From: Gemmatimonadota bacterium
Lineage (GTDB): Bacteria > Gemmatimonadota > Gemmatimonadetes > Longimicrobiales > Gaopeijiaceae
DNA length: 64,000 bases
NCBI GenBank assembly: GCA_034521595.1
Contig: JAXHMG010000003.1
Coordinates: 640,001 to 704,000 of the forward strand
Reading direction: 5' to 3'
Shown here: positions 38,753 to 44,688 of the stretch, piece after piece
Position numbering within the stretch: the first letter of the stretch is position 1
Layout: each line of letters starts with the position of its first letter
Notes under the pieces: generated by a model
Seen by the model: only the letters and a program-made list of their open reading frames with translations
Databases searched by the model: none
What the model was told of the DNA's origin: nothing
Translations under genes and position numbers: made by a program

Positions 38753-39565
38753 ATGCCATCCGATGACTTTCGCACGCTGAGGCCCATGCACTGCACCACC
38801 TGTGGCGAGGCGATCGAGCCTGGTGAGGACCGCTGCACCACCTGCGGTGCGGTCGCGCCCGCGGCGCGGATCGTGGGACATGCGGACCGAGTGCGGGCCT
38901 GCCCTCGCTGCGCGTACCAGGGCGAAGGCGTGCCGTACTTTCGCCGGGCCGGGCACGTGGCTCTGTTGGTCGGGGTGAGCGTCTTTACCTACGGGATCGG
39001 CGGACTCGTATACTGGTTGGTGCGTCGGCACCATCTCGTGTGCCCGCGATGCGGCCTCGGTTGGGAGAATGCGGCCCGCGTGATGTCCGTGGCGGGCCCC
39101 GAGGCCGAGCAACATCTTTCGAACGGGAAGGGAGCGCTCGACGAGCCATTGCCGAGTGCGGGCCTCAAGCGGCGCATCGGTGGGGTGGCGATGGTCCTCT
39201 TGGCCACGCTGCTCGTGCTCGTGGGTATCGTGGAAGGGGAGGCGGCGGCCGTCGCGCTCGGAAGCGTGGTCGGGGTGGGAGGGTCGCTGACGTTCTACTG
39301 GGGCTGGCGGGGTCTTCAGGACCGGCGTCACGCCGTCCTGCGGGGGTTGCAGCGGCGGGTTCTCCACCTCGCGGCGGAGAAAGGGGGCACGCTCACTGTG
39401 ACGGAGGCTGCCGCGGAGTTGAACCTTTCGCTGTCCGCGGCGGAGAGGATCCTCACCGGAATGGACGATGATTTCCGTGTGCGGTCCGAGATCTCGCGGG
39501 AGGGGGTCCTCTACTACGAGTTCCCGGAGCTTCGGCACCGGGGAGACCTCGGGCCCGGGGTCTGA
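38753..39565 (+). CDS. membrane protein with double zinc ribbon, LITAF-like CxxC-hydrophobic-CxxC segment and C-terminal HTH-like domain
   Basis: CTTC..CTTC, CPRC-TM-HHLVCPRC, two more TMs, GTLTVTEAAAELNLSLSAAERIL...YEFPEL. Confidence 0.7.
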   Translation: MPSDDFRTLRPMHCTTCGEAIEPGEDRCTTCGAVAPAARIVGHADRVRACPRCAYQGEGVPYFRRAGHVALLVGVSVFTYGIGGLVYWLVRRHHLVCPRCGLGWENAARVMSVAGPEAEQHLSNGKGALDEPLPSAGLKRRIGGVAMVLLATLLVLVGIVEGEAAAVALGSVVGVGGSLTFYWGWRGLQDRRHAVLRGLQRRVLHLAAEKGGTLTVTEAAAELNLSLSAAERILTGMDDDFRVRSEISREGVLYYEFPELRHRGDLGPGV

Positions 39566-39697: not shown

Positions 39698-41518
39698 ATG
39701 CTCCCGACACACATCAGTTCGTCCGACCCGATCCGGACCTCTCCGACCCGCGTCGTCGGTCTCTCGGAGCACAGAAGCCGTCGACGACAAAGGCTTGCGC
39801 TCGCGCGCGCGATCTTATCCGGCGACGCGGTGCGCGCCGCTCTCGTGGATCACCTGAGCGAATTCGCCCAGATCACTGGAGCGGACCGTGCCGCGGCCGT
39901 GTGGATCGACGAGTACAGCGAGGGTGGCGTCCATCCGCACGTAGTCCTCGACCTGCTGAGCGACCGTCCTCGCCGTGCATTTCCGCGCGAGCCACTCGAG
40001 CGAGCATGGGAGTTGGGTCTGCCGGGGACGTACGAAGCCGGAAGCTCCTCCAACCGGCATGACGCGGAAGCCTCGAGCTGCTTCGCGGTCGCGCTCGGAA
40101 GCGACGGTGCACGAGCCTGGTTCCTCGTTTCCGACTCGGTCGGTCCCCGGCCGTGGTTGACGGCCAAGGACCGAGAGCGGGCGATGTTCTTGTCCGGAGA
40201 GTGCGCGAGTGCGCTGCTTCACCGGGATCTCGATGAGCTCTCCGAGCAGCCGAAACGGAATGGTCGGGGCTTCGTCGGGCTACCCGTTCTCGACGATTGC
40301 GAGGGCCGGGAGGATCGCCCCGAGGTCACGGCCAAGGTGGAGCAACGCTTCTTGGTGGTCCGGCTCACGCGAGCGTTGATCGACGGCGAGCTCGATGACG
40401 CCCCCGAAGATACGTGGCGTGAACGTCTGGACACGGTACGGGCGGAGGTGGGCAAGCGTGTCGACGACGGGGGAGACGCCGAGGATCGCTGGGCCCCCGT
40501 GTTGGACGCCGTCGCCGGCCGTACTTTTGTAGACTTGGCCGACGCGCTCCTCCATGCCGGAAGATCGGCCGAAACCGAAGGGCACGTTCACGGGGCACTG
40601 GAGCTGTATCGTTGCGCATACGATGCGGCCGCGACCGTAATGCACGCGGGAGCAGCGGTGGATGCGGCTCGCTGCCAGGGAAGGGTTCAGCGCCGCCTTG
40701 CCCGATGGGAGGATTCGGTCCGCCAATACCAGCTGGCGCACGATGTGGCGGTGGCGGCGGAGCTCTGGGAGCGTGCGGCGCGGGTGCTCGTCGGTCTGGC
40801 CTCGGTGCGGCGGGAAGTGGGCAACATCCCCGACGCACGCAGGGAGCACGTACGGGCGCTCGAGTTCGCCGAACGGTGTGGTGATGCCGACACCGTCGCC
40901 ACCGTGCATCACGGCATTCTCACTGTCGAGCACGTGGCCGGCAATCTGGATGTGGCGCTACAGCACGGATGGTCCGCGGTGTCACAGTACGAGGACGAGT
41001 CCGGCAGGATGCGGTGCCTCGCCAGTCTGGCCGGGGTCTTGCTCGAGTTCGGTGATCGGACCGCGTCGGAAGACGCGTGGACCGTAGTCGCGGAACGCAC
41101 CGCTGATCTCTACTATCGGATCTATGCGCGTGATGCGCTCGCGTATTTGGCCGCCCTCCGGGGAGACTTGGAGGGATTCCAGCGACAGGCCGCTTTGTGT
41201 GATGCCCTGGACTGGGAATCGGGACCGCTGTCGGCGAAGGCCGAGATCCTCTATTACCGTGGCAAGAGCTTCCGTGCTCTCGGTCTCCGCGATACCGCGA
41301 AAGCCTGGCTCGAGCGTGCGGTGACGTTCGCGGAGGAGCACGGCTTCAATCGTACGTTGTTCGAGGCTGAGGACGAGTTGAAGATGCTCGAGCAGGAGAA
41401 CGCGGTGCGTAACCGCGCGGCCGAGGACGACGCTGCAAACACGACGCCCGCCGCTCCTCCCGAGATCCGTGACGGACTTCGAGAGATGCGACGGGCGGTC
41501 GCCGCGTCGGGCTCGTGA
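39698..41518 (+). CDS. GAF-like + tetratricopeptide-repeat protein, candidate peptide receptor
   Basis: N-terminal TGADRAAAVW...FAVALG..AWFLV (GAF-like); ~7 TPR-like repeats, e.g. ARVLVGLASVRREVGNIPDARREHVRALEFA and AEILYYRGKSFRALGLRDTAKAWLERAVTFA. Confidence 0.75.
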   Translation: MLPTHISSSDPIRTSPTRVVGLSEHRSRRRQRLALARAILSGDAVRAALVDHLSEFAQITGADRAAAVWIDEYSEGGVHPHVVLDLLSDRPRRAFPREPLERAWELGLPGTYEAGSSSNRHDAEASSCFAVALGSDGARAWFLVSDSVGPRPWLTAKDRERAMFLSGECASALLHRDLDELSEQPKRNGRGFVGLPVLDDCEGREDRPEVTAKVEQRFLVVRLTRALIDGELDDAPEDTWRERLDTVRAEVGKRVDDGGDAEDRWAPVLDAVAGRTFVDLADALLHAGRSAETEGHVHGALELYRCAYDAAATVMHAGAAVDAARCQGRVQRRLARWEDSVRQYQLAHDVAVAAELWERAARVLVGLASVRREVGNIPDARREHVRALEFAERCGDADTVATVHHGILTVEHVAGNLDVALQHGWSAVSQYEDESGRMRCLASLAGVLLEFGDRTASEDAWTVVAERTADLYYRIYARDALAYLAALRGDLEGFQRQAALCDALDWESGPLSAKAEILYYRGKSFRALGLRDTAKAWLERAVTFAEEHGFNRTLFEAEDELKMLEQENAVRNRAAEDDAANTTPAAPPEIRDGLREMRRAVAASGS

Positions 41519-41531
41519 TGAAGAGCGCCGA

Positions 41532-41669
41532 CTACATGCCGGGGTCGGGGCTGTGCTGGAGCTCACCCGGGTCGGGGCTGTGGTCCGGACCAGTGATCGA
41601 CGAGGTGGTGCAGGCGGCGGTTCCAACCGTGAGGAGAAGCACGAGGAGGGAGCGTCGTAGAGTCTTCAT
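41532..41669 (-). CDS. 45-aa exported (pro)peptide with duplicated HSPDPG motif
   Basis: MKTLRRSLLVLLLTVGTAACTTSSITGPDHSPDPGELQHSPDPGM*; AGGA RBS 9 nt upstream; basic n-region, hydrophobic h-region, TAAC; in-frame 27-nt-period repeat. Confidence 0.7.
   Translation of the reverse strand: MKTLRRSLLVLLLTVGTAACTTSSITGPDHSPDPGELQHSPDPGM
41539..41582. repeat. 17-bp near-identical direct repeat (period 27 nt) encoding HSPDPG twice
   Basis: CCGGGGTCGGGGCTGTG (41539-41555) and CCCGGGTCGGGGCTGTG (41566-41582); the single mismatch is synonymous. Confidence 0.85.
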
Positions 41670-41781
41670 TCGAGACAATCCTGAATCTGGAGTGGGCCCG
41701 GTGTGAGGGCAGTTCGTTCTTCCGCTTGATTCAAGTTTTCTCGACCCTGGACTGCGGAAGGTACCTTTTTGCTTCCAAGGT

Positions 41782-42600
41782 ATGTCTTTTACGAAGATCA
41801 TGGCCCTTATCGCGATGTTGACACGGGTGCGCGAGACGAACGAAGCTGTGACCCACGTGCTCGGCCGGGAGCACGAGATCGTCCGGGCGGCCACTTGGTC
41901 GAGGCTGGTCTGGTCGCTTCATGAGCGTCCGGTCACGGTTGCCGTGCTCGACGGTGCGGCGCTCGCTCGCATCCATCCCGAACGGGCGATCGTGGAGCTT
42001 CGGCGACGATATCCGAGCCTGGGGATCGTTGTCTTGGCCCGTGACGTGACCGACGCGGGTACGTGGTTCCGCCTTGGAAGAGCCGGGCTTTCCGACCTCG
42101 TGATTCTGCCGCTCGACGGGATGGCTCCAGCGCTGCCGAGGGCCATCCGGAACGCGCTCGACGGGAGCACGGCCTCGGTCGTGGAACGGGTCGTGAGCCC
42201 TTCGCTTCCCCGGAGGGAACGGAACGCCGTGCGCTGGACGCTCGAGGGGGTGCAGCGGGGGTGGGATACGGACGAAGTCTGCGCGCGCGCGGGGCTCACC
42301 CGACCCCACATGAGCGTCTGTCTGCGCGCGCACGGGCTCCCTTCGGTGGGACGTTTGCTGACGTGGGTCCGGATGCTCCACGCGGGGCGTTGGCTCTCTG
42401 ATCCCGGTCGCACGGGCGAGAGCGTTTCGCGGCAGCTGGGCTACGCCAACGGGGCGACGTTCAGGCGGGCTTTGAGGAACTACGTCGGGGCGACGCCGAG
42501 CGAGGTCGCGGCGCTGGGCGGCTTGCTCCCGGTGCTGGAATGCTTCGTCCAAGCATGCGATCTTGAAGTGCGGCCGCGCGCATTGAGCTCGGTCGCGTGA
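41782..42600 (+). CDS. AraC-family transcriptional regulator with N-terminal degenerate receiver-like domain
   Basis: C-terminal TGESVSRQLGYANGATFRRALRNYVGATPSEV; N-terminal VAVLD...LRRRYPSLGIVVL...RAGLSDLVILP. Confidence 0.85.
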   Translation: MSFTKIMALIAMLTRVRETNEAVTHVLGREHEIVRAATWSRLVWSLHERPVTVAVLDGAALARIHPERAIVELRRRYPSLGIVVLARDVTDAGTWFRLGRAGLSDLVILPLDGMAPALPRAIRNALDGSTASVVERVVSPSLPRRERNAVRWTLEGVQRGWDTDEVCARAGLTRPHMSVCLRAHGLPSVGRLLTWVRMLHAGRWLSDPGRTGESVSRQLGYANGATFRRALRNYVGATPSEVAALGGLLPVLECFVQACDLEVRPRALSSVA

Positions 42601-42624
42601 CGACCACGCCAGCCGGAAGGCGCA

Positions 42625-42879
42625 GTGATGATGAGAGAGTTCACCGATCGCGAAGGACGAACGTGGACCGCCCTCGTGCGCGAGGCACCCGCGACCGATT
42701 ACAAGGGACGCTACCACCTGGTGTTGCGCCCTGCGGATGAACCGGCGCGGGAATATCCGTTGGAGGATATCCGTTGGAACAGCGAGCGGACGGGTCTGCG
42801 AACCATCGAAACCATGTCCGAGGTCGAGTTGCGCCGACGCCTCCGCTCCGCGGTCGGGCGGGGGGCGGAGGTCCGGTGA
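42625..42879 (+). CDS. small hypothetical protein (84 aa)
   Basis: REFTDREGRTWTALV...IRWNSERT..RTIETMSEVELRRRL; compact ORF right after the AraC gene. Confidence 0.65.
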   Translation: MMMREFTDREGRTWTALVREAPATDYKGRYHLVLRPADEPAREYPLEDIRWNSERTGLRTIETMSEVELRRRLRSAVGRGAEVR

Positions 42880-42909
42880 GGTCACCCTGAAGCGACCCCG
42901 GGACCACGC

Positions 42910-44688
42910 TCAGCCTCCTCCGACTCCGACTTCACCTTCGTTACGAGGGATGACCAACCACTGTCCCGCGAGGATGGTGTTGCGATCAACCCGTGGGTTG
43001 GCGTCGAGGAGGTCGGCGAGCGAGATGCCGTACTGGCGGGCGATGACGGTGAGGTTCTCTCCCGGGCCGATGCGGTGACGCTGCGCGCCACTGCTAGCGG
43101 GCGGTGACACTTCGCTGGCCGCGACCTGTTCGTCCGCCGCCCGGGCTTCACCGAGTCCGCGCTCGACACGGGCCAGTCGGGCGCCGATCTGGTTCTCGAC
43201 GGCTTTCGCTCTAGCCACCGAGGGTGTTCCATTGAGCATGATGGCGAACGCTAGCCGCTCGCCGTTCTGGGTACGGACGACGCCGCTGAGCGCGGAAACG
43301 CGCTCGATCGTGCCTGTTTTCGCACGCAGGTTGCCGGCGGCCGCCGTCCGGTACATGCGCGGGAGCTCACGCGCGCGTCCGGCCTCCGGGAGTGTGGCCC
43401 AGTAGGTGTTCCAATGGGGATGCTCCGCCATGCGGTCCAGGACCTCGACGAGTTGGCGCGGAGTGACCCGGTTGCCGACAGAGAGCCCCGAGCCGTCGAG
43501 GAGCTCGATTCCGGCCGTGTCGACCCCGATACGCGCCAGGGCACTCCGGACTGCCCGCGCGCTCGCGGAAGGGGAGCCGACATTCGTCTCGATCCGCCCG
43601 ATGGTTCGGAAGACCAGCTCCGCGAAGAGGTTGTGGCTCTGCTTGTTGATCACTTCCAGATACGCCCGAAGCGGATCGGACGCGTAGCGGGCCAGAACCT
43701 TCGTGCCCCGCGTGCCCGCGAACGGTGCAGACAGCCGTGGCACGCTCGAGCGCCCGGGACGGTCCACGGTTCGCACCGTGCCCGACACCTCGACGCCCCT
43801 GTCCTCGAGCGCCGCGTGGAAAACGGAGGCGGCGAATGTAGCGGGATCCGGGACGGTGAACTGTCGCCACGCGTCTCTGGCTCTGATCCCGATCGTACCC
43901 TCGACGCGAATCGGTGCGAGGGGTTCCTCCCGGAGGATCGCGACCCTTGGTCTCGCTCCAGCTACGGTTTGCGCCAGATTCGAGATATCCAACCCGGCAT
44001 GATCCGGAATCGATTGGACGCGAGGGGGGGCGCCGACCTCCGCTGCCGGGGAGATCCGCATAGAGACGACGTTCTCGTTGAACGACAGGGCCGAGATCGG
44101 CGCGGTGAAATGATCGTTGAGGTCTCGTGGGTCCCATCCCGTTGGGCGCAGTGGCCCCGGCAGAAAGGACGCATCAGCGACCAGATCCCCTCGTACTTCC
44201 CGGATACCCGAAGCCTCGAGTTGGTCGAGCAACTCCTGGAACACGGCATCCCTTCGGTGGTGAAACCGGTTCGACAGGCCCGGATCCCCCGTTCCGTAGA
44301 GGATCAGGTCTCCGTCGAGCACGCCGTCCTCCCGGACCGTGCCGTCCGTCATCAAATAGGTGAGGAAGCGGTAGTCCGGTCCGAGCACCTCGAGCGCTGC
44401 CGCCGTGGTGAGGAGTTTGACGTTGGATGCTGGAGCCAGTGGAACGTCCGGGTTGACGGAATACAGGGTGTCGCCGTGGTCCATGGATACCACGAGCACA
44501 CCTCGATCCGTGTCCTGCCACGAGCGCCCCAGAAGGAGTCGATCCAAGCCCGAGCCCAGGGACTCGATCGCGGTTCCAGTGGACGGTGTGGGCTGAGCGG
44601 ACGCTGTGGTGGGAAGCCCGAGCATGCCGACGAGGGCGGCTCCGGCGAAGACGGCACGGACCCGGGGGCTCCTTGCATCACGGGTCAT
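42910..44688 (-). CDS. dacB: D-alanyl-D-alanine carboxypeptidase/endopeptidase (PBP4, peptidase S13) with C-terminal LysM
   Basis: PASNVK, SHN, DGSGLS, AKTGT; LysM HRIGPGENLTVIARQYGISLADLLDANP. Confidence 0.93.
   Translation of the reverse strand: MTRDARSPRVRAVFAGAALVGMLGLPTTASAQPTPSTGTAIESLGSGLDRLLLGRSWQDTDRGVLVVSMDHGDTLYSVNPDVPLAPASNVKLLTTAAALEVLGPDYRFLTYLMTDGTVREDGVLDGDLILYGTGDPGLSNRFHHRRDAVFQELLDQLEASGIREVRGDLVADASFLPGPLRPTGWDPRDLNDHFTAPISALSFNENVVSMRISPAAEVGAPPRVQSIPDHAGLDISNLAQTVAGARPRVAILREEPLAPIRVEGTIGIRARDAWRQFTVPDPATFAASVFHAALEDRGVEVSGTVRTVDRPGRSSVPRLSAPFAGTRGTKVLARYASDPLRAYLEVINKQSHNLFAELVFRTIGRIETNVGSPSASARAVRSALARIGVDTAGIELLDGSGLSVGNRVTPRQLVEVLDRMAEHPHWNTYWATLPEAGRARELPRMYRTAAAGNLRAKTGTIERVSALSGVVRTQNGERLAFAIMLNGTPSVARAKAVENQIGARLARVERGLGEARAADEQVAASEVSPPASSGAQRHRIGPGENLTVIARQYGISLADLLDANPRVDRNTILAGQWLVIPRNEGEVGVGGG

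Follow-up and report, generated by a model that had tools for sequence, protein, structure and literature searches.

A conserved family of small lipoprotein-type precursors with tandem C-terminal cores beside TPR and AraC-type regulator genes in Gemmatimonadota: a candidate peptide-signal locus

In a 64,000-nucleotide stretch of Gemmatimonadota bacterium DNA (assembly GCA_034521595.1, contig JAXHMG010000003.1, positions 640,001 to 704,000; hereafter the window, with positions counted from its first letter), a 263 nt gap separates a gene for a TPR protein from an AraC-type regulator gene. Most of the gap is occupied by a short open reading frame (ORF) on the minus strand. The original prediction, made from the letters alone, held that this frame encodes a hidden secreted peptide or lipopeptide of 45 residues with a tandem HSPDPG motif. 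The locus therefore raises two questions: is the small ORF a gene, and what would its repeated motif do? On comparative evidence it is a real gene, as the frame, start, Shine-Dalgarno box and architecture recur far beyond chance. The function of the motif is argued below by degrees. The parts of the small ORF are:

41669..41532, minus strand: small ORF for a lipoprotein-type precursor, 45 codons plus TAG, with two HSPDPG cores
41682..41679, minus strand: Shine-Dalgarno AGGA, 9 nt 5' of the ATG (consensus 'aGGa', at equal distance in the 29-locus alignment)
41613..41669, minus strand: signal peptide, residues 1-19 (n-region MKTLRR, h-region SLLVLLLTVG, then T-A-A before the Cys)
41610..41612, minus strand: Cys20 (+1), presumed site of lipidation and LspA cleavage, an invariant column in alignments A2 and A6
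41583..41609, minus strand: linker T-T-S-S-I-T-G-P-D (family consensus G-S/T-S-S-I-x-A/G-P-D/E)
41562..41582, minus strand: core 1, HSPDPG(E), read from the translated sequence
41556..41561, minus strand: spacer L-Q between the cores (F, L, FH, FR or D in close relatives)
41535..41555, minus strand: core 2, HSPDPG(M), C-terminal, with the stop codon directly after

The frame had been described as concealed in a longer one, and the ORF list and translation agree: it is the tail of a 120-aa ORF with a GTG start (41894..41532) that runs antisense into the AraC-type gene. The proposed start also matches the sequence, with ATG at 41669 and AGGA 9 nt before it; the stop TAG lies at 41534..41532 and the translation is MKTLRRSLLVLLLTVGTAACTTSSITGPDHSPDPGELQHSPDPGM. 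GC content at codon positions 1, 2 and 3 is 0.64/0.56/0.80, a pattern that matches the long genes of the window, where GC at position 3 is 0.80-0.86.

Recurrence was followed from three starting points. Clear matches to the small ORF itself were found in 5 of 40 relatives, three from the window's genus and two from outside it, and the neighbours are the same in all five; genome G025 gave a match at chance level only (E 0.08). The AraC-type protein as anchor yielded 37 loci from public genomes. The small ORF is present in 28 of these, on the opposite strand and ~110-130 nt upstream of the AraC-type gene; eight others hold 277 nt or less of upstream DNA before a contig end, and one (L052) has a transposase-like insertion at the place of the TPR gene and small ORF. 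The TPR protein as anchor was found in 44 of 121 genomes, and 33 of 81 genera, of the window's own taxonomic family. In all 29 fetched TPR-anchored loci (window excluded) the small ORF lies tail-to-tail with the TPR gene, 9-148 nt past its stop, and these include diverged small ORFs that sequence search had missed. The AraC-type gene is there in 30 of 30 (window included). Gene start, Shine-Dalgarno box and frame are kept across at least 33 genera.

The idea that similar micro-ORFs might occur in relatives and elsewhere in the same genome was thus borne out for the relatives. In the window's own genome (3.49 Mb, three contigs) tblastn found no paralogue (next best E 0.1), and the only other match to a scan for signal peptide plus tandem repeat was low-complexity junk. 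The gene is single-copy and vertically inherited. Frame disruptions in orthologues had been named as a sign against it, and a single one was seen: an in-frame TAA in L034 (the same as L062; genome G429), at the first residue of the first core, behind which the array continues in frame. A near-identical database protein, P0108, has Tyr where this locus has TAA. The TAA reflects a nonsense mutation or else an error in the sequence of that metagenome-assembled genome (MAG).

Some loci differ in detail. L075 (G441) holds two tandem small-gene paralogues, 64 and 234 nt past the TPR stop, one of them with a single core between two Cys (…C-Y-I-I-P-G-P-N-T-Y-T-C-E). L052, which comes from one MAG, has a transposase/integrase-like ORF at L052:1700-2900 and an AraC-type gene truncated at ~residue 62. 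An assembly gap (Ns) falls inside the repeat array at L027:2500-2780, and repeat numbers in MAGs may generally be under-called.

The family so defined comprises 49 distinct genes in the fetched loci and ~209 small proteins in public protein sets, and gene callers have predicted the small gene in ~200 public protein clusters. A profile search of 5.8 billion proteins returned 102 family proteins of 40-113 aa, none with a Pfam domain; all are named 'hypothetical' except two, which carry the JGI name 'predicted small lipoprotein YifL'. Filter-free HMMER against 1.84 billion cluster representatives gave 227 matches at E<=0.001 and 57 at E<=1e-10; among the 150 matches listed, 30 are long proteins brought in solely by unrelated low-complexity repeats. 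Pfam and NCBIfam gave no family assignment for the small proteins, the nearest protein-atlas clusters are labelled 'hypothetical protein', and no literature on the family was found within a limited literature collection. A profile search of 401 Gemmatimonadota genomes returned five at E<=1e-5, and those in G180 and G314 are other, larger lipoproteins; this search scored 15 candidates per genome and is an undercount, as the TPR-anchored search showed.

G180 belongs to another Gemmatimonadota family. Its loci L059 and L061 encode larger lipoproteins in which P-G-P-V-D-P-G tandem repeats follow the lipobox Cys and precede a folded domain. Repeat lipoproteins of this type are a possible evolutionary source of the small family, or a parallel to it.

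The small proteins share one plan. A basic n-region, a hydrophobic core and [A/S/G]-Cys are found in 209 of 209 (207 by pattern and two by eye), so the Sec-type signal with a lipobox-like end that had been proposed for the window extends to the whole family; 160 of the 209 contain at least two exact copies of a 5-7-mer. Cys20 is the sole invariant column of alignment A6, and P28 of the linker is invariant in A2. Between linker and cores, 72 of 118 distinct precursors have a C-x(4-8)-C loop; a loop of the form C-x-D-P-x-x-C is frequent in the family. The cores number one to seven, are six or seven residues long, follow the pattern Y/H/I/V - x - P - D/G - x - G/N - x and usually end the protein.

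A census of the same 118 precursors found no core in 2, one in 20, two in 33, three in 22, four in 21, five in 10, six in 9 and seven in 1. All cores are identical in 89 of the 96 multi-core precursors, and the 'mixed' ones (7 of 96) resemble transitions between core types. The 47 distinct 6-mer cores obey a common pattern, with Y/H at position 1 in 42, P at position 3 in 42, and G/D at position 4 and G/N at position 6 in all 47; Asp occupies position 4 in 22. The protein ends exactly one residue past the last 6-mer core in 88 of 116 core-bearing precursors, and a Gly-rich tail is added in some family proteins. Spacers between identical cores vary in length (MDG, FD, LNGQAEA, EFH/EFR); in the window's own genus the unit is H-S/T-P-D-P-G-x with a spacer of 0-2 residues. 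No dibasic sites (K/R pairs) lie between cores, where the junctions run from N to Y, S to H, G to Y, E to H and so on, or are short uncharged spacers.

A Cys that never varies and that follows a small residue where the h-region ends is the signature of a lipoprotein. The window's T-A-A-C was called non-canonical, which is right in that it has T and not the canonical Leu (V/I) at -3; the departure is mild, since T is found there in 19 of 118 family precursors (A in 77, V in 16, L in 2), and T-A-A-C matches a permissive lipobox pattern. A crude census by that pattern gave 197 candidate lipoproteins in the same genome; 70 of these have L at -3, 47 have A, 31 have V and 14 have T. By these counts the window lipobox is relaxed rather than aberrant, and relaxed boxes are common in this organism. 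The genome encodes Lgt (PF01790, 176 bits) and LspA (PF01252, 113 bits). The precursor is probably exported by Sec with a lipoprotein-type (signal peptidase II) signal, and lipidation is predicted.

In 41 distinct genes with at least two cores, the core copies within each gene were aligned. The copies differ at 149 nucleotide columns: 139 at codon position 3, seven at position 1 and three at position 2. The residue is altered in only 5 of 246 codon columns. Against an expectation of one third, the position-3 excess has a binomial p of ~1e-53, a value that overstates independence since the genes are related, although every comparison was made within one gene. Several genes show variation at every third position of the core with the peptide unchanged from copy to copy. 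The window follows suit: two synonymous bases (CCG/CCC and GGT/GGC), and not one as first counted, separate its HSPDPG copies at 41582..41565 and at 41555..41538. Repeat-number differences between orthologues come in whole units.

These substitutions indicate that selection keeps the core copies identical within each gene. As the copies have diverged at synonymous sites and still specify the same peptide, the repeats must be old enough for this divergence, and each copy constrained. Protein-level constraint and recent duplication had both been offered to explain the near-identity of the two motifs; the first is upheld and the second rejected for the family. The codon-position signal also excludes a non-coding repeat and the overlapping plus-strand frames as the explanation. 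On sequence grounds the functional unit is the C-terminal core of 6-7 residues, here HSPDPG-x.

The comparative loci further indicate that the small gene is locked into a conserved cluster with two regulators:

39698..41518, plus strand: 606-aa TPR protein, convergent neighbour (Pfam TPR_12), its stop 13 nt from the small-ORF stop
41782..42600, plus strand: AraC-type regulator, divergent neighbour (Pfam HTH_18), conserved start probably ATG 41800

The AlphaFold2 model of the TPR protein (predicted local distance difference test, pLDDT, 84.8) has an alpha/beta GAF-like domain at residues 22-175, a TPR superhelix at 208-566 and a terminal helix at 588-604. Foldseek matches it to the peptide-binding TPR of LGN/Pins (E ~5e-7) and, from rank 32, to Rap (E ~1e-4), including the Rap-peptide complexes 4gyo, 6t46 and 8rte. 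From the model, the likeness to LGN and Rap appears to be that of TPR folds in general. No RRNPPA family was found for the TPR protein in Pfam/NCBIfam, and its N-domain is neither a helix-turn-helix (HTH) nor of the helical Rap type. The model of the regulator (pLDDT 88.8) combines a receiver-like (beta/alpha)5 domain (residues 8-125) with an AraC-type double HTH (130-260). Its best Foldseek matches are SoxS and response regulators (NarL, RcsB, DesR and isolated receiver domains). D57, at the end of strand 3, is invariant; the alignment as read by eye has neither the acidic pair that follows strand 1 nor the Lys that follows strand 5, so the regulator looks like an atypical receiver. Sequence searches of PDB gave nothing informative for either protein. 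Neither model contains a signal peptide or an evident membrane segment, and both proteins are predicted to be cytoplasmic. Complex prediction with TPR residues 195-606 and precursor residues 16-45 scored 0.29 (mark 0.32), which speaks neither for nor against binding.

The core classes follow the neighbours. A quick maximum-likelihood tree was made of 49 TPR proteins, the 56 rows having been reduced by dropping loci with a best match below 450 residues and identical duplicates. The classes H/Y-x-P-D-x-G, Y/I/V-Q-P-G-x-G/N, H-T-I/L-G-S-G and H-N-P-N-V/I-G track its clades. Peptide and neighbours therefore seem to have been inherited together, with slow change; the tree does not prove co-evolution of core and TPR, since kin share labels.

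We propose, at somewhat less than an even chance, that the small gene encodes a multi-copy pro-peptide which takes the lipoprotein route and supplies its heptads, either set free or displayed, as ligands to the regulators encoded next to it. The precursor would be exported by Sec on its lipoprotein-type signal and would then probably be lipidated at Cys20. The heptads would be clipped to free heptapeptides, several per precursor, or displayed on a lipid-anchored stub, and would be perceived through the GAF-TPR protein, the receiver-AraC regulator or both. The genome has one gene for an OppA-type binding protein (SBP_bac_5), and this single system might import the heptapeptides. The strict identity of copies, the variable spacers, the single-core members, the end of the protein after a core and the 'mixed' precursors all suggest that the cores are independent units. 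By analogy, these are the features of multi-copy signal precursors. They, together with the RRNPPA and NprX precedents, place this proposal first.

RRNPPA pro-peptides, known from Bacillota and phages (PMC11343458, PMC9765709), are exported by Sec and encoded beside the receptor gene (PMC11343458). Their mature peptides have 5-10 residues, usually sit at the C-terminal end and occur in one to four copies per pro-peptide (PMC11343458). The present family resembles them and Rap-Phr in that a small pro-peptide gene with a Sec signal adjoins a TPR gene and a short, usually C-terminal unit is present in identical or near-identical copies. The lipoprotein-type signal is also shared, though with a minority: 211 of 2,734 RRNPPA pro-peptides were predicted as Sec/SPII, that is, with a signal peptidase II signal (PMC9765709). 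The targets of Rap are response regulators, and the pair of small gene and TPR gene here has a receiver-like regulator at its side. Unlike RRNPPA systems, this one belongs to a diderm phylum, has an invariant lipobox Cys and up to seven copies, and is arranged convergently. The TPR protein is also different, with ~600 aa, a GAF-like N-domain and no sequence-level membership.

The ligand of NprR, NprX, is a TPR-bound heptapeptide of the Bacillus cereus group with Pro-Asp at positions 3-4 and Gly near its end (PMC3763537), to be compared with H-S-P-D-P-G-E. Receptor and peptide classes of NprR-NprX co-vary between lineages, as here (PMC3763537). The likeness is limited to a pattern of two or three residues: NprX is present in single copy behind a signal of the signal peptidase I type, and NprR has its own HTH. 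Tandem identical cores in variable number behind a signal peptide are also found in fungal Kex2-processed repeat proteins and alpha-factor-type precursors (PMC7329392); those are eukaryotic and have dibasic sites between cores, whereas there is no dibasic or conserved junction here.

Enterococcal sex pheromones are cut out of the lipoprotein signal peptide. They share with the present family a lipoprotein-type precursor as candidate source of a short peptide signal. The difference that had been drawn between the two stands, in that the repeated, conserved unit here lies in the mature C-terminal part and not in the signal peptide. Rap-Phr or NprR-NprX probably comes nearest as a working analogy, with a TPR receptor, a response-regulator-like DNA binder and a tandem pro-peptide exported by Sec. 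The locus would then belong to a known kind, in which a multi-copy precursor of ribosomal peptides goes with a TPR regulator, but would differ in phylum, export route, receptor architecture and gene orientation.

Several points weigh against the pro-peptide proposal. Lipidation, cleavage, release, import and binding are all putative. In the aligned family junctions no residue that could mark a cleavage site between cores is conserved. Synteny across the group takes in all five genes of the neighbourhood, so conserved gene order may account for part of the adjacency. The gene is convergent to the TPR gene, which is not the usual RRNPPA arrangement; the N-domain of the TPR protein is GAF-like and neither an HTH nor a Rap-type helical bundle, and its fold matches are generic, with Rap reached only at rank 32 and E ~1e-4. 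The cores change slowly, clade by clade, unlike those of hypervariable pherotype systems. Similar P/D/S/G-rich repeats serve as plain linkers in larger lipoproteins of other genomes. Finally, in a few members a single core is held inside a Cys...Cys loop, a form ill-suited to a linear released heptapeptide.

Some of these points favour the main rival, a tethered small lipoprotein, an explanation that we regard as possible, if on balance unlikely. The mature 26-residue lipopeptide would stay uncut, and its turn-rich tail (P-D/G-x-G/N) would bind an envelope partner, for instance a membrane sensor (perhaps the cluster's zinc-ribbon membrane protein), an enzyme of the periplasm or a machine in the outer membrane, with repeat number setting valency or reach. 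The invariant Cys and conserved linker suggest that the lipid anchor itself matters, and the missing cleavage site and the disulfide loop that encloses the core in some members fit an uncut product. P/G/D repeats are used as post-Cys linkers in larger lipoproteins (L059, L061; P0185, P0232), and the conserved genes close by include those for a membrane protein and a periplasmic S13 peptidase. However, no domain follows the supposed linker, the protein ending at the core in most precursors. Identical copies maintained despite synonymous divergence, with variable spacers between them, fit independent units better than a ruler or tether, and the two most tightly linked regulators are predicted to be cytoplasmic.

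Three further explanations are each very improbable. The product might be a member or analogue of LptM (YifL), the maturation lipoprotein of the lipopolysaccharide translocon, which it resembles in size and lipoprotein signal and whose name JGI gives to 2 of the 102 family proteins. The NCBIfam model NF047847 (LptM) reaches at best 20.5 bits against a cut-off of 27.7, over model positions 1-20/21 of 31, and Pfam LptM_cons (PF13627) matched 2 of 25 members with a best E of 0.075, which is not significant. All NF047847 matches fall below the cut-off and cover the signal peptide up to the Cys only, that of the window protein included; the conserved mature motif is not matched. The genomic context also differs. 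LptM is not known to have a tandem core, and neither tandem identical cores nor a setting beside regulator genes is known as a feature of LptM.

A periplasmic metal-binding peptide or metallochaperone, which would use the His and Asp of H-x-P-D-x-G, is just as hard to credit. His or Tyr comes first in 42 of the 47 distinct cores and Asp is fourth in 22, yet whole clades lack a metal ligand (IQPGTGN, VQPGTGN, GTLGSGN) with architecture and context unchanged, and the conserved cluster has no metal transport or resistance genes. We likewise give little credence to a modified peptide precursor, that is, a multi-core RiPP (a peptide made by ribosomes and then modified post-translationally) or bacteriocin, or to a small lytic lipoprotein. 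Multi-core precursors are typical of some RiPP classes, and one protein-atlas neighbour is a colicin lysis-protein cluster (score 0.85), a weak lead only. Against both, the conserved cluster encodes no modifying enzyme, dedicated exporter, immunity or colicin gene, the precursor has a Sec lipoprotein signal instead of a leader peptide, and the gene is inherited vertically in single copy, the genome having no paralogue of it. A chance open frame or non-coding intergenic repeat, suggested by the shortness of the frame and its absence from ORF tracks, is almost certainly wrong, being refuted, as far as comparative evidence reaches, by the codon-position bias, the conserved start, Shine-Dalgarno box and frame, and the gene calls in public protein clusters.

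Diderm bacteria are thought to rely on small molecules for signalling. Ribosomal oligopeptide signals with TPR receptors are regarded as a hallmark of Bacillota (PMC10075063, PMC9765709). A bolder form of the pro-peptide proposal, which is speculative and which we doubt more than we believe by a good measure, would make this locus the first Rap-Phr-like encoded peptide module beyond Gram-positives. A lipoprotein-anchored pro-pheromone with up to seven copies of a heptapeptide would release cores that act through a GAF-TPR receptor controlling a phosphorylation-independent receiver-AraC regulator, in a module held by long vertical inheritance in one Longimicrobiales family. As the small gene invariably lies between two regulator genes, it may encode a peptide signal of a type found to date mostly in Gram-positive bacteria. 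The locus is compact and open to test, and it comes from a phylum of soils and sediments that has been little studied; it offers a defined precursor, predicted heptapeptides within reach of synthesis and two candidate receptors or regulators that have confident models. Tandem peptide copies kept identical by selection are an unusually clean signature, and even as a tethered lipoprotein the product would represent a conserved family of 40-90-codon genes left unnamed by standard annotation.

The remaining features of the cluster are:

38753..39565, plus strand: 270-aa upstream cluster member with zinc ribbons and hydrophobic segments, its C-terminus HTH-like (weak matches to Pfam DZR and HTH_IclR)
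42625..42879, plus strand: 84-aa downstream cluster member, with no Pfam/NCBIfam family, in 37 of 37 AraC-anchored loci
42910-44688, minus strand: S13 D-Ala-D-Ala carboxypeptidase with C-terminal LysM, convergent to the cluster, in 36 of 37 AraC-anchored loci
41782..41799, plus strand: AT-rich block ATGTCTTTTACGAAGATC, with invariant or near-invariant columns across 26-29 loci, directly 5' of ATG 41800

The 270-aa zinc-ribbon membrane protein is present in 28 of 30 TPR-anchored loci. An Rfam scan of 40500-43000 gave no match, and a consensus scan of 41400-41900 found neither a sigma-70 promoter nor an intrinsic terminator. With no terminator-like site found in that scan, convergent transcripts of the small gene and the TPR gene would overlap. 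The two stops are 13 nt apart in the window (41519-41531), and the gene ends coincide in L029 (L029:2758).

RNAalifold found no consensus structure in the intergenic region. A GC-rich inverted repeat (GCGACGCCCC..GGGGCGTCGC) with some two-sided changes is seen in L021, L023, L024, L026, L031-L033, L039 and L027; 56.5% of cells pair and the window copy is weak, which confines the hairpin to a subgroup of loci. The AT-rich block includes the annotated ATG of the regulator at 41782, which reads ATA or GTA in many loci of the 29-locus alignment, and the block is probably non-coding. As it is more conserved than the flanking coding DNA, it may be a promoter, operator or leader. In the window and in L018-L050 it contains an imperfect palindrome, ATCTT-N5-AAGAT.

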